Below are positions 8,134 through 43,240 of a DNA stretch of 64,000 nucleotides, one piece after another (the stretch's first letter is position 1; the number at the start of each line of letters is the position of its first letter). Source of the DNA: Octopus vulgaris (lineage: Eukaryota); assembly GCA_951406725.2 (NCBI GenBank), contig OX597820.1, positions 11,532,001 through 11,596,000 on the forward strand, written 5' to 3'. A model generated the notes under the pieces. That model was not told the DNA's origin and did not search any database. It saw nothing but the letters and a program-made list of their open reading frames with translations. A program made the position numbers and the translations under genes.

Positions 8134-8575
<442 letters not shown>

Positions 8576-9119: not shown

Positions 9120-9341
9120 AAACTGGGTTTGTATAGGACCAGCCTAAGAAAAAAGCCAAGTTACAGAAGCATTGATGATTATTCAAAACTAACGAGACCT
9201 AGAAGAGAAAGACCTTTTTGCTGGGCCAACTGGAGCGAAGCAGAAAATCGGGTGAAGGATCATGAAGAAAGTCGTCGATGACCTATGCTCCATAGGAAGC
9301 AAAAGGGCTTTAGTAAGTTAGTAAATCAGTTAGATCGTTAA

Positions 9342-9378
<37 letters not shown>

Positions 9379-9380
9379 AG
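9120..9380 (+). mobile_element. 3' end of an RTE-clade LINE (decayed) with (TTAG)n tail
   Basis: gcagaaaatcgg (AENR) ... gtcgatgacctatgctcc (VDDLCS) followed by tagtaagttagt repeats, like the RTE C-terminal A.DR..W...V..LC motif. Confidence 0.55.
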
Positions 9381-10354
9381 GAATGTATGTGAGCGAATGA
9401 GCATAGGCACATTAATACGCACGAGGATGTGAAAAGGTGTAAAAATCACGAAAAGGAAAGGCGAATTAGGAAAAGTAAACCACTCGTTTATGCTTTGTAA
9501 AGAAACTTCGCCAAGCGTAAAGAAAGTTAAGTGACAACTTATGTTAACGGACAGTGCGATAATCCGTGGTGTGCGGTGGTACCAGACAACCATTGGTGAT
9601 CGATCGAGTGGCTTCATGAACTGAAACAGACGGCCATCTTTTTGTAGAGGGGCTAATTGTCGTGGCGGGAATCATAGAAATGCTCACAACAGCGTCTGGA
9701 TGGAGGATGTCGCACTTTGCCAGCTATATTTTCCTACAATCCAACAGATGGGATTTGCTGAGGTACCGGTAAAGTCTTGAGTGACATGGTGTTTGAATTT
9801 CGCTTTATTCGTAGTTGTGGTAATGATCGCGAAGGGACAGTATCATTAAGTCGTCGGACAAAATACTTCGCAGCATTTCTTCTGACTCTTTACGTTCTGA
9901 GTTCAAATGCCGCCGATGTCAGTTTTGTCTTTCACACCTTCAGGGTCGAAAAACTAAAAAACGCCAGTCAATTATTAGGATCGTTGTGATTCATTTGTGA
10001 TTCACTTATTCTCTCCCCTCAAAACTGCAGGCCTTGGACTCTGCAGCAGACCGACGTCCCGTTCAAAGAGGGGATGTTGTGATCCCGGTAACTTATACAC
10101 CACAGAAATCGGATAAACGGTCTTGTCAACCCTGGGTCTCAAGGAAAACGAAACAGTTGTGATAGTTGAACGCAAGATAAAAGCATGACAACCTACAACT
10201 AGAGCATTTGAAGATGATTGGCTGGATGCAATAAAACGTCGTGAAAATAATTAATAGCCACAGAATCAGTATTTATACCAATCAGTATTTATCTCCACTT
10301 AAAGTGGATGACCCGATTGATAAAGCAAGAGAAGTGGAGCACAGAATGCGATTA

Positions 10355-10510
10355 GTTCGTCCGTCGTTGTCGACGATGACCAAGGGCTTCACATGTGTGT
10401 CCAACTACAGCCGATCAGTTCGATGCGTGCTGAAGGCTCTTTCGCGGGTCGGGCGCTGCTGGTCTGCTGGAATTGAGTACAGAATACTGCGACGGTTACC
10501 GTGAGCTTAT
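10355..10510 (-). mobile_element. Probable RTE-LINE 3' end (decayed)
   Basis: Minus strand ARIELIG..THM resembles the RTE zinc-finger tail, followed by ggtcatcgtcgacaacgacggac stem-loop. Confidence 0.45.
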
Positions 10511-11032
10511 GGTAACTATCGCAGCCATTTTGTGGTCTAACACAACATCCGCTTCTAAGCAGAGATAAATAATGCGTCGTGAAAATATCTCTCTCTTTTG
10601 AAAGAGACAAGAAATGACGCGGGAAAGTTCACGCGAAAAAAAGAAAATGGAGATTATGGAGTAGCGAGCATTTCAAGGAAAATGTGATTATGTGGAAAGT
10701 GAAATTTAATGTTGTGCATTAGCATAAATCTAATAAAGGTTCTAGGAGCGTGGATGTTATTTATAGGAATAAAATGGAGAATAAATTATAATCTGCATAC
10801 ATTGTATACAGCCTCTTTCCATTTCAGAGGTGGAATTGTCAGGTGAGTGACTTGATCTGAGGCCGTGCGTTGAATCTACAGAAAAAGAGAAAGGAAGAAG
10901 ACATGGTATGTGAAATACAGTCAAATGCCAAGTTACCTAACCACTTTTTTTTTTCAATATGTGACCGCGTGTGTATCGTTGGCGATTTTTTTTCCTCCGT
11001 CTTCCCTTCCTTGGACCTTTCCTTTTTCTATG

Positions 11033-18284: not shown

Positions 18285-18991
18285 GGATTTCATCTCTACT
18301 AAATGTCACCACTCTATTCTATTCGTATGGCAAGCGAAGACGATGTCACCATCTTTTCTTCCATCCTAGTCAGCACCGTGCATTCCTTATTCTTTCCCTC
18401 CCTTTTACACCATCAACTAGCAACCAGCGAGCGAACTTGTCACTGCCACATACAATTACCGTATTTCCCGGTGTATAAGCCGCTATTTGTTTCGTTTTAC
18501 CTTCAATGTTTTGATAATGTTATTTTTTTTTATCTAATAAAGACTTTTATATTGGCGAAATGTGTTTGTTGTTGATTATAGTAAGATAAGATCATGACAA
18601 TAACAACACATCTCATAGTTGTAAAATAAGGCATTTTGAAACTAAATATACGTCAACAACAAAAACGCTAGCTGCGGACTCGTTGCTCTATGGTGTTGAT
18701 TTATCGAACAAAGTGGTGACATTTAGCAGAGATGACCCGGAAGTTGTTCCTCTTCGATTACTATCACAAGCAGCAGTAGCTTTCTTCAACTGAATACATG
18801 TCGTTGATTGGTTGACATTACCCAAATACGACAACTTTAACACAAAATAACTTCTAAAATAAGAAATTTTGTCAAAAATGTTCAGAGTAAACCGTGTTCT
18901 AAGTGAGAAATTCTACCAGTATTCGAAGTTTCAAACTGTTTAATTAAAAGAAAAATTAATTAAAAAATCTGTGATTGAGATGGAATAGATC
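18285..18991. mobile_element. Decayed GGATC-ended TIR element (relative of 56651 MITE)
   Basis: attctaccagtattcgaagtttcaaactgttta...gatcc right end; internal inverted pair catctctactaaatgtcaccact (18291) / agtggtgacatttagcagagatg (18712). Confidence 0.5.
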
Positions 18992-19151
18992 CGAGACCAT
19001 TATTGCTTAATCTTTAAGGCGGCACGCTGGGCAAAATGCTTAGCGACATTTCGTCCCGTCTTTGCGTCTGAGTTCATATTCCGCCGGGATTGATTTTGCT
19101 TTTCCTCCTTTCAGAGTCGACAAAATAAGTACCAGTTGAACGCTGGGGTCG

Positions 19152-21659: not shown

Positions 21660-22580
<921 letters not shown>

Positions 22581-22907
22581 ATATATGTAGGTATATACGT
22601 GTCCACAAACATTCGCACACTACGCAACAGGCGCGCGCGCGCTCTAAGCTAGACAAAACCAAAGCAACCAAACTTGGAATTAATTTAAAGTGAGCGTGAA
22701 AATTGACTTTGATAGCTTTAGAATATTCTAGTATTTACATTTGAAACGTGTCTAGACATCAAGGTTGAAACTATTAAACAATTAAGTCGAGGTGAAACTA
22801 GTATTGTTTGAGCTTTACTTTGGGGAATAGACGGCGGTGGGGAAAGTGTAGTCGTTGACGAGGCAGTGGGGGGGAGGGGGTCGTCGATGGTGATTAGTGA
22901 TACAAAC

Positions 22908-23259: not shown

Positions 23260-23410
23260 CGGCGTAGCTGTGTGGCAAGAAGCATGCTTCCCAACCACAT
23301 GGTTCCGGGTTCAGTCCCACTGCGTGGCACCTCGGGCAAGTGTCTTCTACTATGGCCTCGGGCCAACCAAAGCCTTGTGAGCGGATTTGGTAGACGGAAA
23401 CTGAAATCCT
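23260..23410 (+). mobile_element. 5' half of a SINE B, ending at the left TIR of the large element
   Basis: Family B sequence stops at ggtagacggaaactgaaa immediately before tcct|ggatc. Confidence 0.85.
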
Positions 23411-23776
23411 GGATCTTTTCGTTTTGAAAGCCAGATTTTCCTAGTTAACTAAACAATTTGAAACTTCGTATACTGGTAGAATGTGTCAAAAGAAAGCATA
23501 ATTGTAAACCAAAATGAAAACGGAATTGTAATTTCTAAGTTTAACGTTGTTTAAAAATTCGAATTTTAACCAATGATATTCTTTCTTTCGACCTCATATT
23601 ATTTACTACTTCTCAAAATATTGTTACTGTGACGTAAACAGCTATTTTGTGACGTAGTTAACGTAAACATGTAAATAGCTAACTAAAATGTAAACATCTC
23701 CGCTTATAAACTTCGTGGAGTATATATAAAATTTGTGTAGATCCTAAATAGCTAAACACACATGTATACAAACATA

Positions 23777-23821
<45 letters not shown>

Positions 23822-23890
23822 CTATACACACATATTCTAATGCATATGCATATATTTGTATATATTTATAATGTGTGTGTATTATAGATG

Positions 23891-23932
<42 letters not shown>

Positions 23933-24494
23933 GTTTACATACAATATATATATGTTATATACATCTACATGTATATGTATGTATGAATATATAAGACCCA
24001 CAGAATTTGAATCAAACTGTTTTGATCCATACATACACACACACACCAACACTACCATCCATGAGACATTCTAACATAATCAATGCTACTACTACTACTA
24101 TCATCATCATTATCATCATCATCCACTGCCGCCGCCACCACCACCTCTACAAAAACACCAACACTATAATTGCTGCCATCATACACATCCACTGTCACCA
24201 CTACCACCACTGCCATGATAACCACATCTACCACAGCTGTTTGCTTACTGCTTACCCACTCACAAAATAGCTATCTACGTCACATTAACACTATGCAGCT
24301 AATAATTTCAAATGAAAACAGACAATATGATTGGCTAAGGATAGAATAAGTACTGGGCTTACAAAAAGAATAAGTCCCGGGGTCGAGTTGCTCGATTAAA
24401 GGCGATGCTCCAGCATGGCCGCGGTCAAGAGTAACATTAAAAGTAAAATATGTTTTATATGACACATTAGGGTTAGGGTTAGTGTCCGAAGGTT

Positions 24495-24553
24495 GAAAGT
24501 GTTTAGTTACAAAAAATATATTTCTCGATCTGCCGTTGAAAGGGTAAAGATCC
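24495..24553. mobile_element. Isolated right-hand TIR of the GGATC family
   Basis: aaagtgtttagttacaaa..atctgccgttgaaagggtaaagatcc resembles 56895-56953; preceded by ttagggttagggttag. Confidence 0.65.
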
Positions 24554-24810
24554 CTTATATTATTTATTTAAACCCTTTACAAACTAGAAGGGTTATGGGT
24601 CAAGAGGAAAATACATCAATCAAATGTTTGGAAGGCCATCGGTTGAATAAAACAACATTGTTCCTCAACAGAACAATAAGGCTCTATAGTTAGGGGGAAA
24701 TTTACCCATTCAGTTTCAAAACTCAGGTGGAGCCAAAAGAGGTCTCTACACATACATACGTATACACACACACACATACATACATACATATATCCAGACA
24801 ACTTCAGCTT

Positions 24811-24840
<30 letters not shown>

Positions 24841-24841
<1 letters not shown>

Positions 24842-25685
24842 TAGCAGAATTGCCCGGCGTTGCTCGGGGCTGAATTGCTTGAAAGTACTGTTAATGATTG
24901 CACTGAATTATGATGATTATTCAGGCAAATATTGATATAAGTTTACGGTGGGAGATAAGGACTTAACGATCAAACGTGTGCCATTGCATTGTTTTGGGAG
25001 AACCAAATTTCTGATGAGCATTATAGGGGCACCAACTTTAAGTTTGAGAAAGTGTGGTGGTAGTCCGGGGTGCTCAAAGGAATTGAGTACCTCTATTGGA
25101 TAGTTGATGACGTCCTCTGGGTCAGGAGTTGTATCGATAGACTGATATACATAGACTTCCCCAGGAATGAGTTTTAGCATTTCATCATTAATATGGTGAA
25201 CAGTTTTATTCCTCGGGGCCAGTATAGCCTTTTTGCCAATCCAATCCATATTCTGATAATTAGCTTGTAGATCTGGGAACACTGCATCTCTGAGATCAGG
25301 AGGCGTCTTAACAATGGTACAAATGGAATCGATGGCAATATTACCATTTTCATACCCTGGTATTTTGCCTTCGCCAAGTGCAAGGAGGGTGTGAGGAAAT
25401 GCTGCTGATGTGATATTACGTCGCATATGAGCACGCATATTGGTGTGAAGTTTGAGTGTTACTTCCCTTTATTAAAAAAAATATGCATTAAAATGGGAAA
25501 AAATGATGGTAAATTATTTTTAAAATCGTAGACTCATCATAGACGCGCGCTAATACACAGAAGGGCTCGATATGAATCACGACTATAAGATACCCGGTTT
25601 TGGTTAAACTGCATCGCAAAATGTGGGAGTAGTTAGGAATCTAAATCGGAGTAGAGACACACAACCTTTCTTTTATATATAAAGA
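24841..25685 (-). mobile_element. Internally deleted Helitron with both termini
   Basis: Minus strand 5' TCtttatatataaaag; 3' cccgagcaacgccgggcaattctgCTAG; A|T insertion site; 5' module shared with 14718 and 41100 copies. Confidence 0.9.
24917..25450 (-). pseudogene. Helitron RepHel PIF1-family helicase fragment
   Basis: Open 173-aa frame with AILAPRN..V..IN, YQSID, YPIEVLNSF..PGLPPH.LKLKVGAPIMLIRNL..CNGTRLIV, characteristic of Helitron helicases; truncated at both ends. Confidence 0.9.
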
Positions 25686-25689
25686 TTTT

Positions 25690-25970
25690 CGTCCGTCCTA
25701 AAAAACTTTGTGCGGAGTGAATGGTTACCTCTATGGAAATATATACACACACGTTATACATACATGTGTGTATAGATGAATATATAAATACATTTAAATA
25801 TCTATACACACTTTTGGGCGATCTTTCTGCTACTTGGATATACTTGGATATACTTATATTCGACCAATTCGTCCTAAATAACTTTGTATGGAGTGAATGG
25901 TTACCTCTATGGAAATATATACACACACATTATACATACATGTGTGTGTCTATATACACTTTTGGGCGAC
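25690..25970 (+). repeat. Imperfect ~170-bp tandem duplication
   Basis: cgtcctaaa.aactttgt..ggagtgaatggttacctctatggaaatatatacacacac..acttttgggcga occurs twice. Confidence 0.85.
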
Positions 25971-26782
25971 TGCTACTTAGAGATAACTTTAGATGTTAGG
26001 TGATCTAGCAAAAAGGATGACCAGTTTGACTTGCTCATCCCTGTCACACACTCACACACACGCACACACACACACAGACACACACGCACCCTCACACACA
26101 CACAGACGCACACACAGACGCACACACAGACGCACACACAGACGCACACACACACACACACACACGCACACACACACACACATTTATATATTTGCGTGTC
26201 TATGTGTGTAAAGAGGAAGTGGGAGTAATATGCAGAGTGAAATGTTAAAATATTGAGTTTTCTCGAATTTTGTCTTAATTGGGGGTAAAATTGAAAGAAA
26301 TTTTGTATGGCATGACCCAATGGAAGTACTTTGAAAAATCATGGGTAAACTCTAATTGAAGAAATTGTGTGAGGAGTAAATCGTTATGTACTTATTTGTT
26401 TCTGTTTGCTGTGTTTTTTTTTAGTAGTGGTTTAAGGTACACTTCTTTCGTTTTATAGAAATAGTTTCACTTTAATCGTTGCACACTTGCAAAGAGAAAG
26501 GAGTAGAAATTAGAGTGATAGCGTGAGTGAATCAGATCGCTCCGTTTTTGTGTGTGTGTGTGTGTGCGTGTGCTCTAGCCCACAATAAGAAAAGCACTTG
26601 ACTTACACACCACAATGTGAGTTTTCTCTAAATTTTGCTTAATTGGGGTTGAAATTTTAAAAACTGGACCTGGCATGACCCGATGCATTCTACTCTTAAA
26701 AATGCTAGGTAAATTGTAATTGAAGAAATCCTATATTGTAGATTTCTATAAGAGACAAAGGGAGGCAGATAAAATCTGTCTT

Positions 26783-26864
<82 letters not shown>

Positions 26865-27249
26865 ATATATACCGCTTGGATCGCTCTCAATGCCACTACG
26901 TCCCGTCCGATTCGCTCCAAAATTTACAGGGACATGTAGAAATAGGTGACGAAGCTCGTGGGCTACCTTAGAAATCCCTATCTTAAAAGGTGTGGTTGCG
27001 AGGGGCCATCTTCCTCACTCACGCTATTTCCTCCAGTACCCTCTCACTCCCCTTTATCTATAACTTTGATAGTTCCACTACCGTTATTTAAAGTATCTGT
27101 CACTCTCGCTATTTCCTCTCTTTTTCACTCACTCTGTTTCTTACCTTCCCATTACATCGGCGTTCTTTTACGTATCTGTCTGTCACCAACAACACACGAG
27201 CATGAGAACAAATATTATGAATCAGATATTCTTGCGTTCATTTATATGT

Positions 27250-28580
27250 ATATGTGTGTGTGTTCTATATATGAATATGTATATATAATGTATGTGTGTG
27301 TGTGTGTGTTCTATATATAAATATGTTTATATAATATATGTGTGTGTGTTCTATATATAAATATGTATATATAATGTATATATACAAAGTGTATATATCT
27401 GTAGTTATGTATATTAAACTTTCTCATACTTTTTCATAGTTATATATATTTTTAAACAAATTATAAATATAATTTAATAATTTTTATTTTCAATTTAATT
27501 TAAATTTTTCAATTTTATATTTTCTATATTATATTTTTTTTATGTTTTTGTTTTTGGTTTTTCACTGTTTGATTTGCCTAAAAATTCCATTTTTCACTTT
27601 TATGATTATACCCAGAGTGCTCTAACGTTTGTCTTTTTTATTTTTGAAACGTTTGAACACATTGCCTCTTTCGTTTTAAAACAATAAAACAATACTACCT
27701 TAATACATTGGTCCAACAAACAAAACATCACCCACTCTCATTCTTTTATGTATCTGAGAATGTGTGTCTGTCTGTCTGTGTGTTTCCCTAAAACTTGAGA
27801 ACTACACAACCAATTTCATTCAAATTTTACACATGACTTACTTAGGGTATAAGGAGTGTGTTGAGCTGGGCTCTGGGCTCCATTGGGCTTACTGTCCACG
27901 GCTACGAGACCACAGTGAGCGCTATGGCGACCAGAGCTCGCTCTGGTCGCCACAGCTTCCCGAGGGAGGGAAGAAGGGGGAGAAGTAACACAGGTGCAGG
28001 CGTGAGCATGGACGCCAACTCCGCCGCCATCAACACACGAAAAAATATGCGTTAAAATGGAAAAAAATGATGTTAAATTATTTTTAAAATCGTAGACTCA
28101 TCGTAGACGCGCGCTAATACGCAGACGGGCTCGATATGAATCACGACTATAAGGTACCCGAATTTGGTTAAACTGCACCGCAAAATGTGGGAGTAGTTAG
28201 GAATCTAAATCGTAGGAGACAGACGCTCGCACAACTACAGTTTTATATATATATATAGATATGTATATATAATGTATGTGTGTGTTCTATATATAAATAT
28301 GTATATATAATGTATGTGTGTGTGTTTGTGTTCTATATATAAATATGTATATATAATGTATATATACAAAGTGTATATATCTTTATTTATGTATATTAAA
28401 ATTTTCATACTTTTTCATAGTTATATATATTTTTAAACAAATTATAAATATAATTTAATAATTTTTATTTTCAATTTAAATAATTTCAATTTTTCAATTT
28501 TATATTTTATATATTTTCTATATTATATATTTTTTTAATGTTTTTGTGTTTGGTTTTTCACTGTTTGATTTGCCTATTAG
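27250..28580 (+). repeat. ~320-bp direct repeats (27250-27580, 28260-28577) enclosing fused Helitron fragments
   Basis: ttttcatagttatatatatttttaaacaaattataaatataatttaataa...ggtttttcactgtttgatttgccta repeated. Confidence 0.85.
27755..28259. mobile_element. Two fused Helitron 5' modules: 27755-27920(+) like 34467-34632 and 27948-28259(-) like 14924-15229
   Basis: ccctaaaacttgagaactac..gctacgagaccacagtgagc shared with 34.5 kb; cgtagactcatcgtagacgcgcgctaatac shared with 15.07 kb. Confidence 0.75.
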
Positions 28581-28650
28581 TGGTTTTATCTCTAATTTAA
28601 TTTATACAGATATATATCTCATTTGTATACATTTGTATATATAATGCGTG

Positions 28651-28688
<38 letters not shown>

Positions 28689-29569
28689 CACATATATATA
28701 TATATATAATGTGTGCATTACGTAGTCGGTCGATTCAGCTGAAAATATGCATACCTATGTTAAAAGTGCTGGCTAGTTTGCATGACAACTATTTTTTCCT
28801 CAAATGAAAGGCGTCACCTCTAGGACAAAATTCCTCATCTTATAAAATGTGGCCCCAGTAGACCCGAATGAAATCGGATTATGTTAACCAAAATGTGAAA
28901 AGGGGTCTAAATGGGGCTGGAATGGGATTAAAATTTAAAGGAACGGGTGTTTAGGAATTCTCTGTTACATTAAGCTAAAACATTTGCGCCAGCCTTTTAA
29001 TCGTCAATGTGTTGCCGTCCATGATAAAGAGTCCATGGTGAGTCTACTGTTGTGAGAAAGAATCACTTCAAAACTTGGTGTTTACGAATTTTCTTTTACA
29101 TCAAGATGAAAATTTTACGCCAGTCGTTAAACTGTCACTACGTTGCTGTCCGTCGTTAAGAAATGCCAGCCATGGTGACTCTACTATCCTCAGATTCTAT
29201 CCCTTCAAACTTTGGTTTCCAATATTTTATTTTTTTTCTTCAGCTCGCAAGTCCGTCTGTCCCTTTTAAATGTTAGCATTTTGCTGTCTGCCTTGAAGCA
29301 GACTTTTCCATTATCACTGCCTCATATTTCTGATTGATCTTTCTAAATATTTTATTTCTCAACTTACTCAAGATCTTCTGTTGTTTATAAATGGGAGAGA
29401 GATAGATAAAGATAGAGAGTAAGAGAAAGCGAGGAAGAGTCCGAGAGATAAGAAAACTAAGAGAGTGGGAAAGTGAGAGAGAAAGGAGAGAGAAACAAAT
29501 ACGGAGAATCATCATCATCATCATCGTTTAACGTCCGTTTTCCGTGCTAGCAAGGGTTGGACAGTGTAT

Positions 29570-32500
29570 ACATTGTATACATTTATATATATATAATTTG
29601 TATACATTTATATATATATATATAATATGTATATATATATATATATAAATATATATAATTTGTATACATTTATATATATATAAATATATATAATTTGTAT
29701 ACATTTATATATATATATACATATATATAATTTGTATACATTTATATACATATATATAATTTGTATACATTTATATACATATATATAATTTGTATACATT
29801 TATATACATATATATAATTTGTATACATATATATACATATATATAATTTGTATACGTTTATATACAAATATATATAATTTGTATACATTTATATACATAT
29901 ATATCATTTGTATACGTTTATATACATATATATAATTTGCATACGTTTATATACATATATATAATTTGTATACGTTTATATACATATATATAATTTATAT
30001 ACATTTATATACATATATATAATTTGTATATGTTTATATACATATATATAATTTGTATATATTTATATACATATATATAATTTGTATATATTTGTATACA
30101 TATATATAATTTGTATATATTTGTATACATATATATAATTTGTATATATTTGTATACGTATATATAATTGGGATATATTTGTATACATATATATAATTTG
30201 TATACATATATATAATTCGTATATATTTGTATACATATATATAATTTGTATATATTTGTGTACATATATATAATTTGTATATATTTGTGTACATATATAT
30301 AATTTGTATATATTTATGTACATATATATAATTTATATATATTTATATACATATATTTAATTTGTATATATTTATATACATATATATAATTTGTATATAT
30401 TTATAAACATATATTTAATTTGTATATATTTATATACATATATATATAATTTGTATATATTTATATACATATATATAATTTGTATATATTTATATACATA
30501 TATATAATTTGTATATATTTATATACATATATATAATCTGTATATATTCATATACATATATATAATTTGTATATATTCATATACATATATATAATTTGTA
30601 TATATTCATATACATATATATAATTTGTATATATTCATATACATATATATAATTTATATATATTCATATACATATATATAATTTGTATATATTCATATAC
30701 ATATATATAATTTGTATGTATTCATATATATATATATATAATTTGTATATATTCATATACATATATATAATTTGTATATATTCATATACAAATATATAAT
30801 TTGTATATATTCATATACATATATATAATTTGTATATATTCATATACATATATTTAATTTGTATATATTCATATACATATATATAATTTGTATATATTCA
30901 TATACATATATATACTTTGTATATATTCATATACAAATATATAATTTGTATATATTCATATACATATATATAATTTGTATATATTCATATACATATATTT
31001 AATTTGTATATATTCATATACATATATATAATTTGTATATATATTCATATACATATATTTAATTTGTATATATTCATATACATATATATAATTTGTATAT
31101 ATTCATATACATATATATAATTTGTAGATATTTATACACAAATATATAATTTGTATATATTTATATACATATATATAATTTGTATATATTTGTATACATA
31201 TATATAATTTGTATATATTTATATATATGTGTATAAATATATACAAATTATATATATAATTATATATATTTTGTATATATTTATATACAAATATATAATT
31301 TGTATACGTTTATATACATATATATAATTTGGATACGTTTATATACATATATGTAATTTGTATACGTTTATATACATATATATAATTTGTATACGTTTAT
31401 ATACGTACATATAATTTATATACATATATATAATTTGTATATTTTCATATACATATAATTTGCATATTTTCATATACATATATGTAATTTGTATATATTC
31501 ATATACATATATGTAATTTGTATATATTCATATACATATATGTAAGTTGTATATATTCATATACATATATGTAATTTGTATATATTCATATACATATATA
31601 TAATTTGTATATCTTCATATATATATATATAATTTGTATATCTTCATATACATATATATAATTTTTATATTTTCATATACGTATATGTAATTTGTATATA
31701 TTCATATACATATATGTAATTTGTATATCTTCATATATATATATATAATTTGTATATCTTCATATACATATATATAATTTTTATATTTTCATATACGTAT
31801 ATGTAATTTGTATATATTCATATACATATACATAATTTCTATATATATTCATATACATATATATATAATTTCTATATATATTCATATACATATATATAAT
31901 TTCTATATATATTCATATACATATATATAATTTGTATATATTCATATACATATATATAATTTGTATATATTCATATACATATATATAATTTGTAGTTATT
32001 TATATACAAATATATAATTTGTATATATTTATATACATATATATAATTTGTATATATTTGTATACATATATATAATTTGCATATATTTATATATATGAAT
32101 ATAAATATATACAAATTATATATATAATTATATATATTTTGTATATATTTATATACAAATATATAATTTGTATACGTTTATATACATATATATAATTTGG
32201 ATACGTTTATATACATATATATAATTTGTATACGTTTATATACATATATATAATTTGTATACGTTTATATACGTACTTATAATTTATATACATATATATA
32301 ATTTGTATATCTTCATATACATATAATTTTCATATTTTCATATACATATATGTAATTTGTATATATTCATATACATATATGTAATTTGTATATATTCATA
32401 TACATATATGTAAGTTGTATATATTCATATACATATATGTAATTTGTATATATTCATATACATATATGTAATTTGTATATATACATATACATATATGTAA

Positions 32501-33815
32501 TTTGTATATTTTCATATACATATATATAATTTGTATATATTCATATACATATATATAATTTGTGTATATATATATGTATATAAATATATACAAATTATAT
32601 ATATAATTATTTATATTGTGTATATATTTAGATACAAATATATAATTTGTATACGTTCATATACATATATATAATTTGTATACGTTTATATACATATATA
32701 TAATTTGTATACATACACACATATATATAATTTGTATACATACACACATATATATAATTTGTATACATATACACATATGTATAATTTGTATACATTTATA
32801 TACATATATATAATTTGTATACATATATACATATATATAATTTGCATGCATATATATAATTTGTATATATTTGTATGCATATATATAATTTGTATATATT
32901 TGTATGCATATATATAACTTGTATATATTTACATGCATATATACGGTTTGTATATATTTACATGCATATATACGGTTTGTATATATTTACATACATATAT
33001 GCAGTTTGTATATATTTACATACCTATATGCAATTTGCATATATTTACATGCCTATATACAATTTGCATATATTCACATACCTATATGCAATTTGCATAT
33101 ATTCACATACCTATATGCAATTTGCATATTTTCACATACCTATATACAATTTGCATATATTCACATACCTATATGCAATTTGCATATATTCACATACCTA
33201 TATGCAATTTGCATATATTCACATACCTATATGCAATTTGCATATATTCACATACCTATATGCAATTTGCATATATTCACATACCTGTATGCAATTTGCA
33301 TATATTCACATACCTATATGCAATTTGCATATATTCACATACCTATATGCAATTTGCATATATTCACATACCTATATACAATTTGCATATATTCACATAC
33401 CTATATACAATTTGCATATATTCACATACCTATATACAAATTGCATATATTTACATACCTATATACAATTTGCATATATTTGCATACATATATACAATTT
33501 TTTATATATTTACATACATATATACAATTTGTATATATTTACATACATATATACAATTTGTATATATTTACATACATAATTTGTATATATCTATGTATAC
33601 ATATATATAATTTGTATACATATATTTGAATATAAATATGTTTACATATATATAATTAGTATATATATATGTATACATATATATAATTTGTATATATTTA
33701 TATACATATATATAATTTGTATATATTTGTATAAATATATATAATTTGTATATATTTATATATATATATAATTTGTATATATTTATATATATATATTTAT
33801 TTAATTTGTATATAG
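29570..33815. repeat. ~4.25-kb tandem array of a 29-bp AT-rich unit (ATATATATAATTTGTATATATTTATATAC and variants)
   Basis: Unit read directly; spurious ORFs in the track are offset by exactly 29 nt. Confidence 0.95.
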
Positions 33816-33864
33816 TTATATATATATATATATATATATATATACGAGAGAAGAAAGTCCAAAA

Positions 33865-34210
33865 ATGAATTCCGCTGCAGCTGTCGGCGGGCGCGAACTC
33901 ATTAAAATTAAAATGGAAGAAATACAAACCTTTTTCGGATTGATCAACGAGAAAGACATTGAATCTAAGATAACACCACCAAGCGAAATATAAAATTAAA
34001 GAAAAGACAATCGTCTATAAAGCATACAATGTAGAGAGAAAAAAAAGATTTGAACACCTGGAGGAAAGCACCATCGAAAAGTGTCTTTGTGCGACTATGA
34101 AAGATATCCCCGCAGAAGTAGAGTTAGGCTGGATTGTAGCCACACTTCTACACCAGAGGGAGGACAAAATACAATTGGTTGAAATTGCAAGAGACGGGCC
34201 TACAATTCCA
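33865..34210 (+). pseudogene. Disrupted coding-like relic, possibly LINE ORF1 N-terminus
   Basis: [42 protein letters not shown] then frameshift [30 protein letters not shown]; no diagnostic motif. Confidence 0.3.
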
Positions 34211-34286
34211 GTCTGTTATATATTTTGAGTATTGTTATCACTAGCGATATCAAGATATAACATTGTATTTTGTATTTTATGTGTAA

Positions 34287-34362
<76 letters not shown>

Positions 34363-34406
34363 GTACATGTAATATGAACACATATATATACTCATATATA
34401 CATGGA

Positions 34407-34446
34407 CTAGCACTATGACCCGGCAACGACCGGGTCATAATGCTAG
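34407..34446. mobile_element. Symmetric Helitron-type 3' terminus (CTAG at both ends of one hairpin)
   Basis: CTAGcactatgacccgg-caacga-ccgggtcataatgCTAG. Confidence 0.75.
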
Positions 34447-34637
34447 TATATCGATATATATGAAACTAAGAATGTGTATCTGTCTGTCTGTGTGAATCCC
34501 TAAAACTTGAGAACTACCCAACCAATTTCATTCACATTTTACACACGCCTTGCTTAGGGTCCATGGAGTGTCAGGAGCAAGGCTCTGGGCGCCATTGGGC
34601 TCACTGTCCGCGGCTACGAGACCACAGTGAGCCTTAT

Positions 34638-34701
34638 GGCTTGGCTTGGCTTGGCTTGGCTTGGCTTGGCTTGGCTTGGCTTGGCTTGGCTTGGCTTGGC
34701 T
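34638..34701. repeat. (TTGGC)n pentanucleotide repeat
   Basis: About 12 perfect units. Confidence 0.95.
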
Positions 34702-35554
34702 TTTGAAAGAGAGGAAGAAGAACTATAATTACATAGAGAACTATAGCGTGAAGGCAGCATATAAAAAAAAACAACCCTTCCTCAGTTGTTGGCAGTTTTA
34801 CCTACTCCGCATTGCAACAATATGTGTCTTCGTTAAAGCAATTTAGATAAAATTTGACATACGTGGAATGTCAAAGCTGCTAACAAAATCAGGACAGTCA
34901 AAATTTTCGCTAAGGGCTGTTTAACCCTAACGAGGTGACGTGGTGAACGCTGCAGAAAGAAAGCTTTGTCAAGAGACAGACGGGAGTGCATGAAGGAAAA
35001 GAAAAAGAAATACATTTAGAAATAGATCTATAGTTATTGAGGACAGAATTTCTGTTAGAAATAGAGAACTATGAATATTGAATTATGCATAAAGCGCTGA
35101 CTTACATTCGGGGCTTCCAATTTCTCTGTAAAATATAAGATAGTCGCAAAATCATCGCACATGTCACCATCGATTACAAACGCCGGTGGAAGATAAACGT
35201 TCCAGAGGACATTCTTGTTCTTTCGTTCGTACAAGGATCGTATTATGTTTCGGCTTAAAATAAATTATAGATAGAAATATAATGTATAGAAATATATAAA
35301 AACCAGAATAGAAAATAAACGTCTTAGGCATATAAAATGAGATAACATGAGATATCAAGGTGTTATAAACTTGAAACTTACTAGAATATCATAGATTATA
35401 TATATCAAGTCATCCAGTCAGTTCTGTCCAATTTTACCTGTTTTTTTAGAGTTGAATGAAATTTAATAGTATTTGCAAATGTCTAATTCAATTAAAAATT
35501 ATTTTTATGCATTTGTGTACGTTTAAACTAATTCAATATTGTTTTACAAAATAA

Positions 35555-36235
35555 TAGTCGGTGTCCACAAAGTCTGCGTACATGGGAATTAACACATACT
35601 TTTAAAACAAATCAATTTTATTTAATTATAATAAATAATATTTTCAAAGTGATTTCCATCATTTTCAATGCATAACTTGATGCGCCTTGCAAAATTCAGG
35701 TGAACTTGATTAAATAAGTCTACATTGCCATCAATTTAAGCACACTGACTAGTAATGCGTTCTCTCATGTGTTTCATCTTACAAAGTTAGAAAGACCCCT
35801 CCATGGGGACTTAACAACTACAATTTTGTCATTTTATCTAAGCAAAAATGAATACAGTTGTGCTCTTGGAAGCTGTAGGGTTACCCGAGCATAAAAGATG
35901 AGCATTATTTGTAATTCAATGGTACAACAGTGTAACAGTTTGCTTTGACATACACACTGCATAAATTGTCAAGTAAATGAGAGGCATCTTTGCCTCCACT
36001 GATTCAGTTGCAAAGTGTAGAGTAAAATTTATTTGATTTCAGACCTCCTTTCAGTCTTTTTATTATCACTCGGTCACACATAGTCCCCAGATGGTAACAT
36101 TGATTTCAAGGCCTTCCCAGATGAGTGACTGGTTATTCGAAGACATTTATAGATTTTAAATTTATTCTGTCCAGTTACGTATCAGTATAGTGGTCATTTG
36201 CAAACTACAGAGGTGACACTTTCATTTCTCCTTAG
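35555..36235 (-). pseudogene. Highly decayed Tc1/mariner (DD41D/rosa-like) transposase relic
   Basis: Minus strand 35699-35631 reads LNFARRIKLCIENDGNHFENIIY, like the R...C...G.HFE C-terminus of these transposases; weaker traces near 36080-36230. Confidence 0.5.
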
Positions 36236-36699
36236 CTCTCACGTCAAACAGTTGTTAATGTTGATTTCAGTTGGGTCACGCCCTTCCAATTGCTATAGAT
36301 TTGTAATGCATCTTACGGCTGTGCCTGTCACCTGGATGGTGAGGAATCCTACATTAGGAGTGGTAACGACTAGGGTAGGGTAACTGACTGCTTATTGTGA
36401 TCATTCGTCTTTTGGTTTCCTGTAGCTTTGCTCTCTTTTACAAACCCAGTGAACATATATTTCCTATTTCAAAGAAATTCAAACAATAGATATAAGACCC
36501 AAGTTAAAAAGATTTTCAACAATTCAACTTCTCTGGTTGACATTAAGATGCCCACCCCCAACAGGGGCCTTAACTCTCACATTTTAGAGCTCCATGACCT
36601 TCATTTTTCAGGAACAAAATCTTTTTAACAAGTTAAATAAGACTGGAATTTTGGAATATGCGCATAAAAATCAGGATTATGGGATACATGTGGCACGAT

Positions 36700-36855
36700 T
36701 ACAATTTTTTAGGGTGTGTAAAGATTGAAATAACCCTCATCTGCAATTTTGATGAAATTCGAAACATAGATATTCCAGTTCATCACAGAAGATATAACAG
36801 AAAAATTTAATTCTCCAATTGAATGTAATCGGGTAACGCCGGGTATCTCTGCTAG
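36700..36855 (+). mobile_element. Helitron 3' end
   Basis: tcgggtaacgccgggtatctctgCTAG|t. Confidence 0.65.
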
Positions 36856-36959
36856 TTATATATAAATATAAAAAAGTAAAAATATGCAATAAATATAAAT
36901 ATGTATATAAAAGTAAAAATGTACATATATATATATATATATATTCTTTCTTTTCTTTC

Positions 36960-37224
36960 TTTTATTCTTTTACTTGTTTCGACCCGAACACTTCTTTAAA
37001 GTAATTCTATATATTTCGCAAGAAAGAACAATAATATTATGTATATACATGCCACCATCGGGGGGACAAACACAAACACACACACAGTTTCCGTCTACCA
37101 AATTCACTCACAAGGCTTTGGTTGGCCTGAGGCTCTAGTAGAAGACCAAGGCGTCGCGTAATGGGGCTGAACCCAGAACCATGTAGTTGGTAAGCAGGCT
37201 ACTTACCACACAGCCACTCATGTA

Positions 37225-37264
<40 letters not shown>

Positions 37265-37267
37265 TGT

Positions 37268-37345
<78 letters not shown>

Positions 37346-37810
37346 TTTGACAAGTGTCAAAGAACGAAACTCTCGCCCCCCGAGTCACTCTGTTGCTTCT
37401 GCTAAATATTGATAGACTTATATATGACAAGCTTTTTCAGATTCCGTCAACCAAATCTACTCACAAGGGTTTAGTCGACCCAGGGCTATAGTAGAAACGC
37501 CCGCTCAAAGTGCCACGCAGCTGGACTGAACCCGGAACAGCTTACAACACAGTCACGCCTGCTTCTATTCACATATATACATATATATTTCTTTTGCTAC
37601 CCACAAGGGGCTAAACATAGAGGGGACAAACAAGGACAGACAAACGGATTAAGTCGATTACATCGACCCAGTGCGAAACTGGTACTTTATTTATCGACCC
37701 CGAGAGGATGAAAGGCAAAGTCGACTTCGGCGGAATTTGAACTCAGAACGTAGACGAAATACTGCTAAGCATTTCGCCCGGCGTGCTAACGCTTCTGCCA
37801 GCTCGCCGCC
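36960..37810 (-). mobile_element. SINE cluster: B (36960-37220), B (37425-37562), A (37587-37810)
   Basis: Family consensus matches on minus strand. Confidence 0.85.
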
Positions 37811-38766
37811 TCTTGCATATAAATCTATGTGCGTATATAGACACAGTTATACATACACATACCTAGTCATGGATGGCTACACACACTAACACACACGTAC
37901 ACATACACATGCAAGTAGTCACACGAGTGTACACACAACCACACACATACGCACGCACACACACACACACACATACACACTCGCACGCACGCACATAATC
38001 TCCTTTCCTCTCACCCTTATTCTTCTAAGCAAACACACATCTACACACACATAGAAAGGCATGCATGCACGCAGACATAAGATTAATTCGCGGCCAAATT
38101 TCAGGGCAGACGTTGAAGAGAAAGGACAAGCTATTGAAAAGGTCGCGAAAAATAGCGACGAACGGACTTTCACGATGAAATATAAAATTAGAAAAAAACC
38201 ACCTTTTATCAATTCAAAATGAACAATTAAATTACACCATCTAGAAAATTACATATAATAGAAATATTAAATATAAAATAATAATATACCGATGATTAAG
38301 TAATGTGCAAAATAATAAATAAATCGTATATATCATGAATTGATAAAAGGTGTTTTTTTTTCTAATTTATATATATATATACAGTCTTTTCTGTTGCTTG
38401 ACCATTAATACCTGCTATATATCTCTCTCTTGCTGCCTTCGAAACACACTGCCACACATACATAGACGCACACACACATACATGAAAGCAATTTCTCACA
38501 CTCAAACACTCTAGCACTCATTCTTAAAATAATTCAAATATAAACACCAGTCATACAGAATACATTCACACTCTTTGATTTTCCTGTACCCCCTTCTCCT
38601 AACCGGATTCTGACCTTGAACTATCTTAACGGACATTCTCGTCTGCTTTCACCCAGCCTGGCGTCAACGCATATAGATAGACAGTTTGTGCCATTTATTC
38701 CATGGGCTCCTCGTGAGCGTTTGTGAAAAGCTTGCTGTGCATTTTGTTGCAGAATTAAGTTCCTGG

Positions 38767-38852
38767 ATTTTCCTGAAGAGAAGGCTGCAAAATGGACTCC
38801 TTATTCAATCCGAATTAGGGACTTTGCAGCCTTTGAAACATATGTAGAAAAT
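38767..38852 (+). ncRNA. Type I hammerhead ribozyme, canonical core, extended stem II
   Basis: attttc-CTGAAGA-gaaggctgcaaa...tttgcagccttt-GAAA-catatg-TA-gaaaat; 6-bp stem I, 12-bp stem II, palindromic stem III ACATATGT, predicted cut after 38846. Confidence 0.85.
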
Positions 38853-38893
38853 AATAAAAAGGAATTTTGTTAAATCTTCGTTTCTTCCTACAC

Positions 38894-38936
<43 letters not shown>

Positions 38937-39819
38937 TACACACATGTGAGTGAGAACACTTTGAGATATTTTTGGTATCTAACATATGTCAGATACTGCG
39001 AGCGCTGCTTCTGATTGGTCAATCCATGGTGATGACCGACGTCACGGTGACCCTTGTGGTATGCTATATAAAGCTCGTATAAAGTCTTACTCAAAGAAGG
39101 TGCATTTTACACCTTGAATTGGTGATAATGATTACACAACATCTCACCAATGAACAAGTGTAAAAATGTGTAGAAACAATTGTAATGTTTATAGATAATG
39201 TCATATATATATATATATATGTATGCATGTATGTATGTATGTATGTATGTATGTATATACTTACATATATATGTATATACATATGCATATATGGGTACAG
39301 GACGTCACAGAAGGTAAACAACAGGAAATACGAAATACGAAAATATGGAATACGAACTTTTTTGCGAACAGCGAAAGAAACAATAGTATCGATAATGCCC
39401 GAAATTGCGTTTGACTCCTCTTGCTGATAACTGATGAAGAATTTGTGACCTTGTGTGTTTTCTGTTCGCCTGTGCATTTAGTATGTGTTCGTTTGTTTAT
39501 TTACAATACGTTTATTTTTAATTATATATATATAGATATGTCATATTTTCCGTTTGTTGTCTTTTTATTTAATCCTGAAGATAGTATTTATGTAACGCAC
39601 GCACTCATTAATCTTTTACCTATATATATATGTGTGTGCGTGTGTATGTGTGCGTGTGTGTGTGTGTGTGTGAGTGTGTGTGTGTGCGCGCGCGCGTGTG
39701 TGTGTGAGTGTGTGTGTGTGCGCGCGCGCGTGTGTGTGTGTAGTTCAAATTTACAGAAAACAATAGACGAAGACAGGTGAAAGAACAACAAGCAGAGTTT
39801 GAAGGCTTTTTAGTTATAG

Positions 39820-39901
39820 AAATCGACCCCAGGACTTACTCTTTGGAACCCTAGCACTTATTCTATCGGTTTCTTTTTCCAAAACGCTAAGCTACGGGGA
39901 C

Positions 39902-39992
<91 letters not shown>

Positions 39993-40220
39993 CGTAGGAG
40001 TGACTGTGTGACAAGAAGTTTGCTGCCTGGTCACTAGGTCAAATAGATTTGGACGATGGAAACTGAAAAAAGCCCGTCGTATATACGTGTTTGTGGGCCG
40101 GAGGGGGCTAGCTTCGTGCTTGTCCCAGACAACCGCTTGTTGACTTCCTTTCCATCCCCGCAACTTAGAAGTTCGACGAAATTAACCGATAGAATATGTC
40201 GAATGACTGAGACAAGTAAA
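39820..40220. mobile_element. SINE B fragments either side of (TA)n
   Basis: 39820-39900(-) and degenerate 39991-40220(+). Confidence 0.7.
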
Positions 40221-40429
40221 TGTTTTTTTTAGATATATCGTAGTAATATCTAATGTAGTTGTGGTTTACGACCAGTCAGGACGTTACCATTGGTTTCACA
40301 CTTTTTATACTCTTAGCAATATAGACGTCTCCCACGGCTAAGAACGTAAAAGGCGCGAAAGCAAAGGTGACTCCCTGACCGGCCACACCAGCCACATAGT
40401 TTCAGGTTCATTCACACTGCGTGGCACCT

Positions 40430-40595
40430 TAGAACCTAGGGTTGGATTCAAAATTCTACCAGGACACCCGATGAAGGCTGGAGAGTAAATCAGCCGAAAT
40501 TTTGTGGTAGCAACAAACAAGATGAGGACAAATATCCGTCCAATGTAAAAAATGTAAATATTGTACAGAATTCCTCATCTCTAAAATATAGAACA
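40430..40595 (+). mobile_element. 3' part of SINE family E with mutated hammerhead
   Basis: gacac-CCGATGA-aggctg..cagcc-GAAA then caagatgaggacaaatatccgtc..ttcctcatctct.aaatatagaac. Confidence 0.8.
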
Positions 40596-41099
40596 ATTTA
40601 TGATTGTTTCAAAAATTCCATGTTGACTTAATCTTGCATCGTGTTTTTAAACGACTCCACAATTAATGATGTAGTCATATCCGTTGTACAGATACCCCGT
40701 TCATAGAAATGATCCCTCGCAACTCTCTACAAAAAATAATATGCTGAAGTGTTTGTCTATCGCTTAAATATAGGACGTTAATCAATGTTTATAGTGGACG
40801 GCACAGCGGTCACGTTTATAAACATGATTGAAGATAAGTCAAAATGAATTTGTAGAAATAATTGTAAACTATGAAACAAAAATAATAACGCAAACTCCAC
40901 TTTTCAGCGCTTATTACTTCTGTAACCCCTCAGAGGAAACATGACTCCTCCTTCACTCCTCTCCACCCTTCATTTATGGTTTGAGAATAATTCTATAATT
41001 GTTGTAAACTGGAATGGAACTTACTCTCTTTCTGCTCACATCCATTCACCATTTAATACTACTTGCTTTGCATCTTTTAGAGAGATAGATTAGATATAA

Positions 41100-41398
41100 C
41101 TAGCATTATCACCCGGCGTTGCTCGGGTTATGTAAGGGAAATAACTATATAAGCATTTTTAGAGAGTTATAGCCAAAAAATAGCAAAAAAAAATGTATTA
41201 AAAATGGAAAAAAATTATGGTAAATTTTTTTTTAAATCGTTGACTCGTCGTAGACGCGCGCTAATACCCAGAAGGGCTCGATATGAATCACGACTATAAG
41301 ATACCTGGTTTTGGTTAAACTGCACCGCAAAATGTGGGAGTAGTTAGGAATCTAAATCGTAGGAGACAGACACACAACCTCTCTTTTATATATAAAGA
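41100..41398 (-). mobile_element. Minimal non-autonomous Helitron (~300 bp)
   Basis: 5' TCtttatatataaaag, 3' cccgagcaacgccgggtgataatgCTAG on minus strand. Confidence 0.88.
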
Positions 41399-42656
41399 TA
41401 AACTCAAAGAGCAACTAGAAAGTGAAAGTAGTTTCTAACTTAGGATGTCTCATAGATAGTGGTGGCAATTGTGTTGGAGGTGGTAGATGTGGTTATCATG
41501 GCAGTGGTGGTGTAGTGGTGACAGTGGATGTGTATGATGGCAGAAATTATAGTGTTGGTGTTTTTGTAGAGGTGGTGGTGGTGGCGGCGGCAGTGGATGA
41601 TGATGATAATGATGATAGTAGTAGTAGCATTGATTATGTTAGGATGTCTCATGGATGGTAGAGTTGAAGACATTGCAGAGTGTAGTGGTGGTGAAATTGG
41701 TGATTTTGAATATGATGCTGGTATTGATCTTGGGGTTGTGGTTGCAGAAGATGGTTGTGGTGGTGGCATTCGAGGTTGTAGTAATGGTTGTAGTGGTGGT
41801 TGTGAAGATGATTCTGATATTGATAGTCTTTGCATTGAGGTGGTGGCAGAGTCAGAGTAAATAATAAGAGCCGAGTTAACACAAGATTCTTAAATTTCGG
41901 AGATCATAAGATAGAGAGCAAGAAGTTAAAAGTTCCAATACTGGCCCAATACCTACACCCCAGATTCTTCAACTATTTTATAAGAAAGGGGTTAATGGCA
42001 GGATAGGGATTCAGCTTTAAAATAAATTGTATAACAAAAAATACATAAATAAATTACTGCTCCAACGATGTAATTTTAGTATGTGTGTATGTATGTATGT
42101 GTGTGTGTGTAAGCAATGCAAACAATGGAAAATAATTTAAACACTCATTTTCTGATGTCTAAGGATGGATATTTATGCGTATGAATCTTTTTCTTTTTAT
42201 TTTCTTTGAAATATAATTCTAGGGAACTGAAAAAGCTGTGTTCGATGCCAATGAGCGGATGTTTACGTTACAAACGAATCTGTAGGTCTGTTTACATGTT
42301 TACGTTAACTACGTCACAAAATAGCTGTTTACGTCAGAGTAACAATATTTTGAGAGGCAGTAAATAATATGAGGTCGAAAGAAAGAATATCATTGGTTAA
42401 AATTCGAATTATTAAACAACGTTAAACTTAGAAATTACAAATCCGTTTTCATTTTGGGTTACAATTATGTTTTCTTTTGACATATTCTACCAGTATACGA
42501 AATTTCAAATTGTTTAGTTAACTAAGAAAATCTGGCCTTCAAACTGAAAAGATCCGAAATCCTTATGTTGAGGAAGGCGCGCGCGCGCGCGTGTGTGTGT
42601 GTGTATGTGTGAAAAGCAATGCAATTAAAGCAATAATGTAAAGTGTCTGAGAGGAA

Positions 42657-42974
42657 CATTATTTACATTATTTACATTCGACGGATATTTGTCCTCATCT
42701 TGTTTGTTGTTAATACAACTTTCGGCTGATATACGCGCCAGCCTTCATCAGGTGTCTTGGGGAAATTTCGAACCTGGGTTCTCATTCCTAACATATTTTT
42801 TGATGTTGTTGTTATTATTATTATTATTATTATTCAGATCACTGTCTGAAATCGAACTCGGAATCTTGGGGTTAGTAGCCCGCGCTCTTAACCACTACGC
42901 CCGTGGCTAGTGGTTAAGAGCGCGGGCTACTAACGCTAAGATTCCAAGTTCGATTCCGGGCAGTGACCTGAATC

Positions 42975-43049
<75 letters not shown>

Positions 43050-43240
43050 TATAATAATAATATCGAAAAATACGTTAGGAATGGGAACCCAGGTTCGAAA
43101 TTTCCCCAAGAGACCTGATGAAGGCTGGAAGGTATATCAGCCGAAACGTTGTGTTAACAACAAGATGAGGACAAATATCCGTCGAATGTAAATAATGTAA
43201 ATAATGTACATAATTCCTCATCTCTTAAATATAGAACTGT
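42657..43240. mobile_element. Head-to-head pair of tRNA-headed SINE family E carrying hammerhead motifs
   Basis: 42657-42900(-) and 42900-43240(+); head tagtggttaagagcgcgggctactaac..agttcgattcc, (AAT)n, then CTGATGA-aggctg..cagcc-GAAA-cgtt-gtgtt. Confidence 0.85.
43110..43155 (+). ncRNA. Minimal type I hammerhead motif in SINE E tail
   Basis: CTGATGA 43115-43121, stem II ggctg/cagcc, GAAA 43143-43146, loopless palindromic stem III ACGT, GUU triplet; stem I gacac/gtgtt in the family consensus. Confidence 0.7.

Follow-up and report, generated by a model that had tools for sequence, protein, structure and literature searches.

The element at positions 23403–42563 of the window, the whole 64,000-nucleotide stretch of Octopus vulgaris contig OX597820.1 that was analysed, is one copy of a young giant family and not a one-off inflated element. 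The family is non-coding, measures 6–53 kb and has two type-A ends, and it is probably a composite Merlin transposon that was moved whole by a transposase acting in trans. This reading builds on the family itself, its target duplications, its common backbone, the link between the end type and one Merlin clade, and the left arm, which in four of 17 copies is a whole small MITE.

Ends, Target Site and Interior

The terminal repeats of the element match each other ungapped and in inverted orientation over 265 bp with exactly 13 mismatches, and the match fails from position 266 (Table 1). Both ends start with GGATC and are directly flanked by GAAATCCT; the chance expectation for such an 8-mer flank match is ~3e-5 (36% GC). 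The first-pass annotation had described these inverted termini with their 8-bp duplication and a second inverted pair inside, and both descriptions hold, the inner pair matching at 92.7% over 193 bp. It had also described a SINE split by the element, a point that proves weaker than stated; on the left side the SINE match stops at 23406. The empty site reconstructed by joining the flanks is GAAATCCTTATGTTGAGG, which differs from the five other SINE copies within the window that run on as GAAAGAAG/AAAAG..GTCGTATA, and the right flank is therefore no clean SINE continuation. At the right junction, which a microsatellite adjoins, the signal in contigs and in reads of four runs is swamped by repeats.

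Table 1. Features of the element at 23403–42563 and a related MITE in the window.
Feature	Position	Strand	Evidence
Left target site duplication copy, GAAATCCT, 8 bp	23403–23410	+	Directly at left end
Left terminal inverted repeat, type A, 5'-GGATC..., 265 bp	23411–23675	+	Inverted match to right end
Left module: 1.1-kb A...B MITE, truncated within B end	23411–24338	+	Comparison with free MITEs
CCA-rich segment common to both arms (inner inverted pair)	24047–24234	+	Match to about 41480–41666
Inner B end remnant, B positions 167–300	24219–24338	-	B is the end upstream of the L134 Merlin transposase
Piece of older related end	24481–24553	-	Sequence match, 78% to 303-bp MITE
Putative Helitron-like fragment with Pif1 helicase piece, family backbone	24838–25690	-	Pfam
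29-bp AT-rich satellite	29587–33844	.	One sister copy with satellite behind same upstream junction
Family backbone up to deletion junction 35772–35774, TTT microhomology	34703–35774	+	Comparison with sister C6_4.9
Central core, part of older repeat	35950–36850	+	At least 30 copies at >=98%, own copy counted
Repeat with degenerate hammerhead-like core	40447–40556	+	By eye, core 40468–40499; no Rfam match
Backbone marker	40600–41080	+	119 first-look candidates; 40 scored, all 97–100%
Right module: A end and interior in common with 1.6-kb A...B MITE; B end gone	41420–42555	-	
Right terminal inverted repeat, type A	42291–42555	-	Inverted match to left end
Right target site duplication copy, GAAATCCT	42556–42563	+	Directly at right end
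Separate 303-bp MITE, same end clan, 9-bp duplication CCTTGTGTG	56651–56953	.	~76% like the giant's ends

The interior consists of transposable element debris and the unit is non-autonomous, as had been proposed. A Pif1 2B domain in an ORF at 24920–25468 on the minus strand is the only Pfam match among the 25 of 95 window ORFs that were scanned, and no host-gene fragment appears among them, though non-coding exons or genes of an unknown kind would escape such a scan. A tblastn search with the L134 Merlin transposase protein against the window and 31 family regions gave no match, which agrees with the earlier statement that no matching transposase lies inside. The 4-kb satellite with its 29-bp unit is likewise present as annotated; it is held in six of the 31 family regions, and the array is not common to sister loci at the >=92% threshold. 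The hammerhead elements claimed for the cargo are reduced to one degenerate core recognised by eye, since Rfam, searched with the gathering score and also with E<=1 as the limit, yields no hammerhead; below the gathering score it gives only AT-repeat miRNA noise.

The Giant Family across the Genome

At least 26 loci carry both type-A ends, 5.6–53 kb apart, in answer to the search for other copies with both TIRs proposed with the first annotation. The element is one mobile unit, as was read there. An exact duplication of their own surrounds 20 of the 26 (18 of 8 bp and two of 9 bp) and a one-mismatch duplication three more; no duplication is recognisable in the last three, two of which are among the four copies that keep the inner end complete. 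The left type-A end itself gave 1324 first-look candidates, the best 40 of which match at 97–100%. Among the 31 regions examined, 14 showed only one end in the examined span, three of which were later closed. In 13 further pairings, four were without a left end in the stretch taken, and eight of the nine further pairs, those of 39 and 52 kb included, have an interior that was read in part and may have grown after insertion.

Sister copies lie on many contigs and their flanks diverge exactly at the element ends. In the window element, 14,725 of 14,887 non-satellite bases recur in sister loci at >=92%, and in the longest fully read copy 27,134 of 29,908 bases are common to the family. The 30 core copies differ on average by 1.2%, the nearest by 0.33%, and all core copies found at >=98% are in giant-family context. 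The suggestion that the element was inflated by nested insertions at its site is not sustained, because the cargo is an inherited backbone common to sister copies, of which the window copy has lost ~11.5 kb relative to the 29.9-kb sister C6_4.9.

Origin of the Two Arms

The left A ends are at 1.4% distance to free 1.1-kb MITEs versus 3.6% to 1.6-kb MITEs, and both kinds of MITE occur free, each with its own duplications. The A end is ~75% like the B end. Of 17 copies, four keep the inner B end of the left arm complete and 13, the window copy among them, have lost most of it; the 13 partial ends break at one common breakpoint. A 4-bp duplication is present in all 17 left arms and absent from five free short MITEs and eight of the 1.6-kb MITEs; the giants therefore look derived from MITEs, a lineage claim based, as are the others, on distances and diagnostic sites. 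In the right arm, no B remnant was found in any of the 17 copies examined, and the arm matches the free 1.6-kb MITE only in part, being richer in CCA-rich sequence; its descent from a second whole MITE is putative. The resemblance of the termini to the 303-bp MITE at 56651 with its 9-bp duplication, pointed out in the earlier reading, was found again.

Link of the Ends to Merlin Transposases

Merlin elements, which Feschotte 2004 as cited in PMC8101967 relates to the IS1016/IS1595 DDE transposons, have 5'-GG termini, TIRs of 24–462 bp and target site duplications of 8 or 9 bp (PMC8101967). The giant element has a terminal GG and a TIR of 265 bp, with family duplications of 8 or 9 bp at 20 of the 26 loci. 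The B end is 96.6% identical to an end 518 bp upstream of the L134 Merlin transposase gene, which keeps all three catalytic motifs yet has three in-frame stops. Ends of the GGATC type lie 370–670 bp upstream of 11 of 40 Merlin loci of this clade (20 duplicate loci having been removed beforehand), none in the wrong orientation, versus none of 57 other Merlin loci (three clade members removed from this control set; Fisher p 2e-5); at the remaining 29 clade loci no end of this kind lies close by. Merlin transposases of the clade are also flanked, at L143, L163 and L164, by the end type of the 303-bp MITE. The A end would be the 3' end of an autonomous Merlin element; no intact B...transposase...A element with a duplication was found in 20 extended loci, the best candidates scored.

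The partner search covered Merlin and MULE loci. Other Merlin families were rejected as partners on account of their GGCAC or GGTTAA ends, and end-like matches near L059, L070, L124 and L141 face the opposite way and are taken as chance MITE neighbours. Of 66 listed MULE loci, 20 were examined, and none of these has a type-A end. The Mutator/Foldback assignment and the MULE transposase expected with these ends must therefore be abandoned in favour of the Merlin clade, and the Pack-MULE identity is rejected on the same 20 loci together with the lack of a host-gene fragment in the 25 ORFs scanned.

Proposed Mechanism and Alternatives

The family has two features of a composite, namely flanking modules that also live freely and a single duplication around the outer ends of the whole unit. 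In the proposed sequence of events, a block of old, repeat-rich DNA of roughly 30 kb would have become enclosed by two modules in inverted orientation, a 1.1-kb MITE on one side and another A end on the other. A transposase would then pair the two outer A ends and carry everything between them along, by analogy with Ac macrotransposition and bacterial composite transposons. Copy number may have risen by the usual means of cut-and-paste elements, either gap repair or transposition while the DNA is being replicated, in about the last 1–3 million years. With the inner B end deleted in one lineage, the left MITE would no longer have been able to excise by itself, which would have locked the composite. 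Internal gains and losses may have followed, among them the ~11.5-kb loss and the 4.3-kb satellite of the window copy. A donor locus without ends was sought among the best 30–40 matches, all of which are family copies or older repeats.

An origin from a single element, equally dependent on Merlin, is unlikely. In that case an A...A or A...B MITE would have acquired the interior through gap repair, through template switching or through nested insertions that accumulated slowly, and its amplification would have come later; the inner B end would be a by-product of repair copying. The right arm without a B remnant, the CCA-rich internal segment in both arms and an interior made entirely of transposable element debris are in keeping with it, and multicopy Pack-TIRs have been described as arising by template switching and subsequent transposition (PMC8277862). 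However, the pieces captured by Pack-TIRs have a median of only 224 bp (PMC8277862), the arms match two distinct free MITE subfamilies, and in four of 17 copies the left arm is a complete 1.0–1.1-kb MITE that retains its two ends. That another superfamily with 8–9-bp duplications (hAT, P or Mutator/Pack-MULE) moves the ends and the Merlin link is incidental appears quite improbable. The 20 extended loci yielded no intact matching Merlin, and FB4, with long TIRs and 9–10-bp duplications, has been called MULE-like (PMC8277862), but one Merlin clade has the ends at a fixed side, distance and orientation in 11 of its 40 loci, as against none of 57 other Merlin loci, none of the 20 MULE loci has an end match, and 18 of the 20 exact duplications are of 8 bp.

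Three further readings can scarcely be credited: in-place inflation of a small element, a pair of unrelated insertions that happen to share an 8-mer, and segmental duplication. The satellite array is unshared at >=92% and no empty allele is shown at 23403–42563, but the interior is common to sisters on many contigs, the flanks differ exactly at the ends with own duplications for each copy, and at the sister C8_94.4 the joined empty site is a SINE tail that is present at window positions 24380–24395. The duplications at sister loci and the common interior contradict all three. The composite Merlin transposon moved whole is thus the favoured explanation. Tentatively, a broader view may be put forward, in which an animal Merlin transposase repeatedly moved a natural 30–50 kb composite with two like ends and the family matured, as bacterial composites do, by inner-end deletion; MITE-born macrotransposons might then be a hidden route that copies megabases of junk and seeds satellites, overlooked because repeat libraries break such units up into their older constituents.

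Significance and Comparison with Known Systems

A unit near 30 kb has reached dozens of sites recently, far more than the few kb typical of such elements. The available part of a review of eukaryotic giant transposons states that transposition efficiency falls above ~6 kb of cargo, and apart from disputed human cases the one eukaryotic composite named in that part is the fly Ising TE (PMC6431247); the literature searched gave no description of a giant composite Merlin family. The family makes it possible to ask, in a natural setting, how much cargo an IS1016-related enzyme that has been little studied can move, its lineages record MITE birth and inner-end loss, and it is a dispersal route for the 29-bp satellite (six of 31 regions). 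Dispersed blocks of 99% identity could promote rearrangements, and old fragments re-amplified within a young carrier lead to misread repeat ages.

With Merlin elements the family shares the terminal 5'-GG, a TIR within 24–462 bp, the 8/9-bp duplication, internal tandem repeats and ends tied to a PF12762 (DDE_Tnp_IS1595) transposase. Complete Merlins with other end types in the O. vulgaris genome are 1.4–3.3 kb long, and the recently active Merlins of the species comprise 11 insertions totalling 28,998 bp (PMC13282606); unlike Merlins, the giants are non-coding, 6–53 kb long, with two like ends and a whole MITE as one arm. Pack-MULEs and Pack-TIRs are also non-autonomous TIR carriers of captured DNA with multicopy cases that have distinct duplications, but they carry host-gene pieces with a median of 224–305 bp and are rarely multicopy (four of the reference set; PMC6431247, PMC8277862), whereas the giants carry tens of kb of transposable element debris and no host gene was found. 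As in bacterial composite transposons and the mollusc KolobokP (PMC9587614), the internal region lies between modules that are also found as free elements. Unlike bacterial composites, the giants have no internal transposase or selected gene and their arms are inverted and non-autonomous; the composite-like KolobokP elements differ in their long direct repeats and in encoding their own enzyme (PMC9587614). The maize Ac macrotransposons, in which blocks of 10–28 kb are moved (PMC9910405), and the Drosophila foldback-flanked Ising TE, which has moved hundreds of kb (PMC6431247), resemble the family in that the ends of separate elements carry the intervening DNA as one block. The Ac and Ising cases are described as alleles or single units of other superfamilies, whereas the giant family is natural, with dozens of dispersed copies, internal lineages and inner-end loss.

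Family size and surroundings of the window copy

The giant TIR element described by the first-pass annotation is real, but it is not a one-off: it belongs to a family of giant Merlin elements that is young, non-autonomous and present in many copies. Its inverted termini are as reported (265 bp ungapped, 13 mismatches, GAAATCCT beside both ends), as are a second inverted pair inside (193 bp, 92.7% identity) and a nearby 303-bp MITE resembling the ends. The SINE said to flank the left end is present and stops at 23406, but the right flank differs from the usual SINE continuation. The hammerhead elements listed as cargo gave zero Rfam hammerhead matches.

A first-look search of the 2.8-Gb genome for the left end gives 1324 candidates. 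Both ends are present in 17 of the 31 regions read around end matches, spaced 5.9-29.9 kb apart, with exact 8-bp duplications in 13 loci, 9-bp duplications in two (one of them in a CA repeat) and none in two. A second set, in which the interior was read whole in just one of nine pairs, gave nine two-ended loci from 13 further pairings (spacing 5.6-53.4 kb); five have exact 8-bp duplications, three have one mismatch and one has none. The two-ended loci thus number 26, with exact duplications in 20, the 8-bp ones including pairs that span 39,066 and 52,221 bp. At C8_94.4, a sister copy, the rejoined flanks form a SINE tail that is also present at window 24380-24395. Because a backbone marker has 119 candidates, of which the best 40 were scored and are each 97-100% identical, the family probably comprises 40 to about 120 loci.

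Features in and around the family
Feature	Location	Description
303-bp MITE	window 56651	~76% like the giant's ends; 9-bp duplication
Inverted pair	window 42679-43184	directly right of the giant; encloses an AAT tract and a 136-bp palindrome (42835-42970)
Hammerhead-like core	window 43114-43145 (near)	within that pair; intact-looking CTGATGA...GAAA; no Rfam match
Palindrome	window 21962-22597	imperfect, 636 bp; two SINE-like copies, head to head
GGATC-clan end	window 18785-18992	further decayed, 74-76%
149-aa open frame	window 41443-41889, minus	right arm; Thr/Ser/Pro/His-rich
Satellite expansion	G000:C13:49853961-49883960	331 motif matches; spans >14 kb
Satellite expansion	C24:45973000-45992999	267 motif matches
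Private LINE, L045	C10_10.5 copy, 5413-7086	long open frame
Private LINE, L031-L032	C9_110.1 copy, 6801-10921	long open frame
Tandem-ended GGATC MITE	L286:6714-7642	right end four times in tandem; 8-bp duplication at outermost end
Merlin-like gene, L286	G000:C29:22209407	
Merlin-like gene, L287	G000:C21:23751027	

Interior and age

In the window copy, 14,725 of 14,887 non-satellite bases are found again in other family loci at 92% or more, and the shared interior is collinear between copies except for deletions and one invertible block. The cargo was inherited in common with sister loci rather than built up here by nested insertions, as had been proposed. Of the 29,908 bases in the longest fully read copy, 27,134 recur in one or more other loci and 20,660 in three or more, which points to a mobile unit nearing 30 kb. 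The cargo of this unit includes a Pif1 helicase piece, SINEs and fragments that, from reading their ORFs, we take to be mariner, Tc1 and LINE. About 11.5 kb of the shared interior is missing from the window copy, with TTT microhomology at 35772-35774. Six of the 31 regions contain the 29-bp satellite, and in sister copy C15_33.9 it begins at the same junction as in the window copy; in or beside two sisters it is hugely expanded. LINE insertions private to single sisters were also seen.

The best 30 copies of the central core all lie in family context and diverge by 1.2% on average (nearest, 0.33%). At the O. bimaculoides substitution rate quoted in PMC13282606, 0.0036 per site per million years, this gives rough ages of ~1.7 and ~0.5 million years, which any assembly error would push up.

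Construction of the arms

Two free MITE subfamilies, of ~1.1 kb (L004, L006, L007, L010) and ~1.6 kb (L092-L100), are each bounded by an A end and a B end, the two GGATC-type terminal repeats, and have their own duplications. The left arm of the giant belongs to the 1.1-kb subfamily. Four of 17 copies keep it whole, inner B end included; in the other 13, the window copy among them, it is broken at one common point within B. Left A ends differ by 1.4% from the 1.1-kb and 3.6% from the 1.6-kb MITEs, and inner B ends by 2.5% from free 1.1-kb MITE B ends. A 4-bp duplication common to all 17 left arms is missing from 13 free MITEs, which argues that the MITE gave rise to the giants rather than the other way round. 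The right arm has A and another ~900 bases in common with the 1.6-kb MITE, but it lacks B and contains more CCA-rich sequence, which makes its history harder to follow. Right-type terminal bases on three left ends suggest conversion between ends, or an ancestral state.

Just past the inner B end, L002 and L027, copies retaining B, carry a degenerate TTAGGG-like tract. The 149-aa frame, still open in several sister copies and with no Pfam match, probably arose incidentally from the CCA-rich tract.

Relationship to Merlin transposases

As first noted, no matching transposase lies inside the element; its partner is encoded nowhere in the window or the 31 family regions. The genome has 150 scored Merlin (PF12762) matches and 66 MULE (PF10551) loci. 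At locus L134, a GGATC end lies 518 bp upstream of a Merlin transposase gene that has three stops and what we take to be EIDE, SDLW and QIES motifs. This is a type B end, with 96.6% identity to the second end of the family MITEs and ~75% to A. A GGATC-type end lies 370-670 bp upstream in 11 of 40 distinct L134-clade loci, always in the right orientation, against none of 57 other Merlin loci (p 2e-5); L143 and L160 have one downstream as well. Given these clade-specific ends, together with the 5'-GG, TIR length and 8/9-bp duplications listed for Merlin in PMC8101967, the giant family appears to be Merlin-dependent. Neither an intact partner transposase nor a B...gene...A copy was found among the best candidates scored.

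The Merlin-like genes L286 and L287 (63-71% identity to the L134 protein; open frames of 317 and 356 aa; GGATC ends not found close by) are possible domesticated copies or partners. Two more Merlin end clans, GGCAC (L065, L068, L114, L115, L120, L137) and GGTTAA (L129, L132, L136, L149), have both ends and 8-bp duplications at 1.4-3.3 kb; several members have open frames near 300 aa, and some may have been recently active.

Origin of the giant elements

The giants are most likely composites, and we think it probable that a trans-acting Merlin transposase moved them. The transposase would pair the two outer A ends, macrotransposition of junk DNA lying between ends would be the origin, copies would be gained through gap repair or replication timing, and deletion of the inner end would lock the composite. 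Capture of the interior by a single element, set beside a MITE-type left arm that keeps its inner B in some copies, seems unlikely.

Movement of the ends by another superfamily is a good deal less plausible. The Mutator or Pack-MULE assignment once suggested by long termini and target duplications finds no support, as the giant's ends occur at none of 20 MULE loci and no host gene was found as cargo. Local inflation or chance is scarcely credible for recurrent duplications around a collinear interior. A Merlin-moved composite is our preferred reading.

Comparison with known systems

In their accessible text, PMC8101967 reports many Merlin sequences in O. bimaculoides, the word 'composite' being absent, and PMC13282606 divides Merlin into 18 families and counts 28,998 bp in 11 recently active insertions, with giant or composite Merlin absent from the accessible part of its supplement. 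No description of such elements was found in the literature searched, which mostly excluded subscription journals; the MITEs may already be catalogued in the Zenodo library of PMC13282606, Repbase or Dfam. Related systems are the Ising TE (PMC6431247), Pack-TIRs (PMC8277862), KolobokP (PMC9587614) and Ac macrotransposons (PMC9910405). Macrotransposition itself is already known; what is new is that the superfamily is Merlin, together with natural amplification at such size and the visible birth from MITEs.
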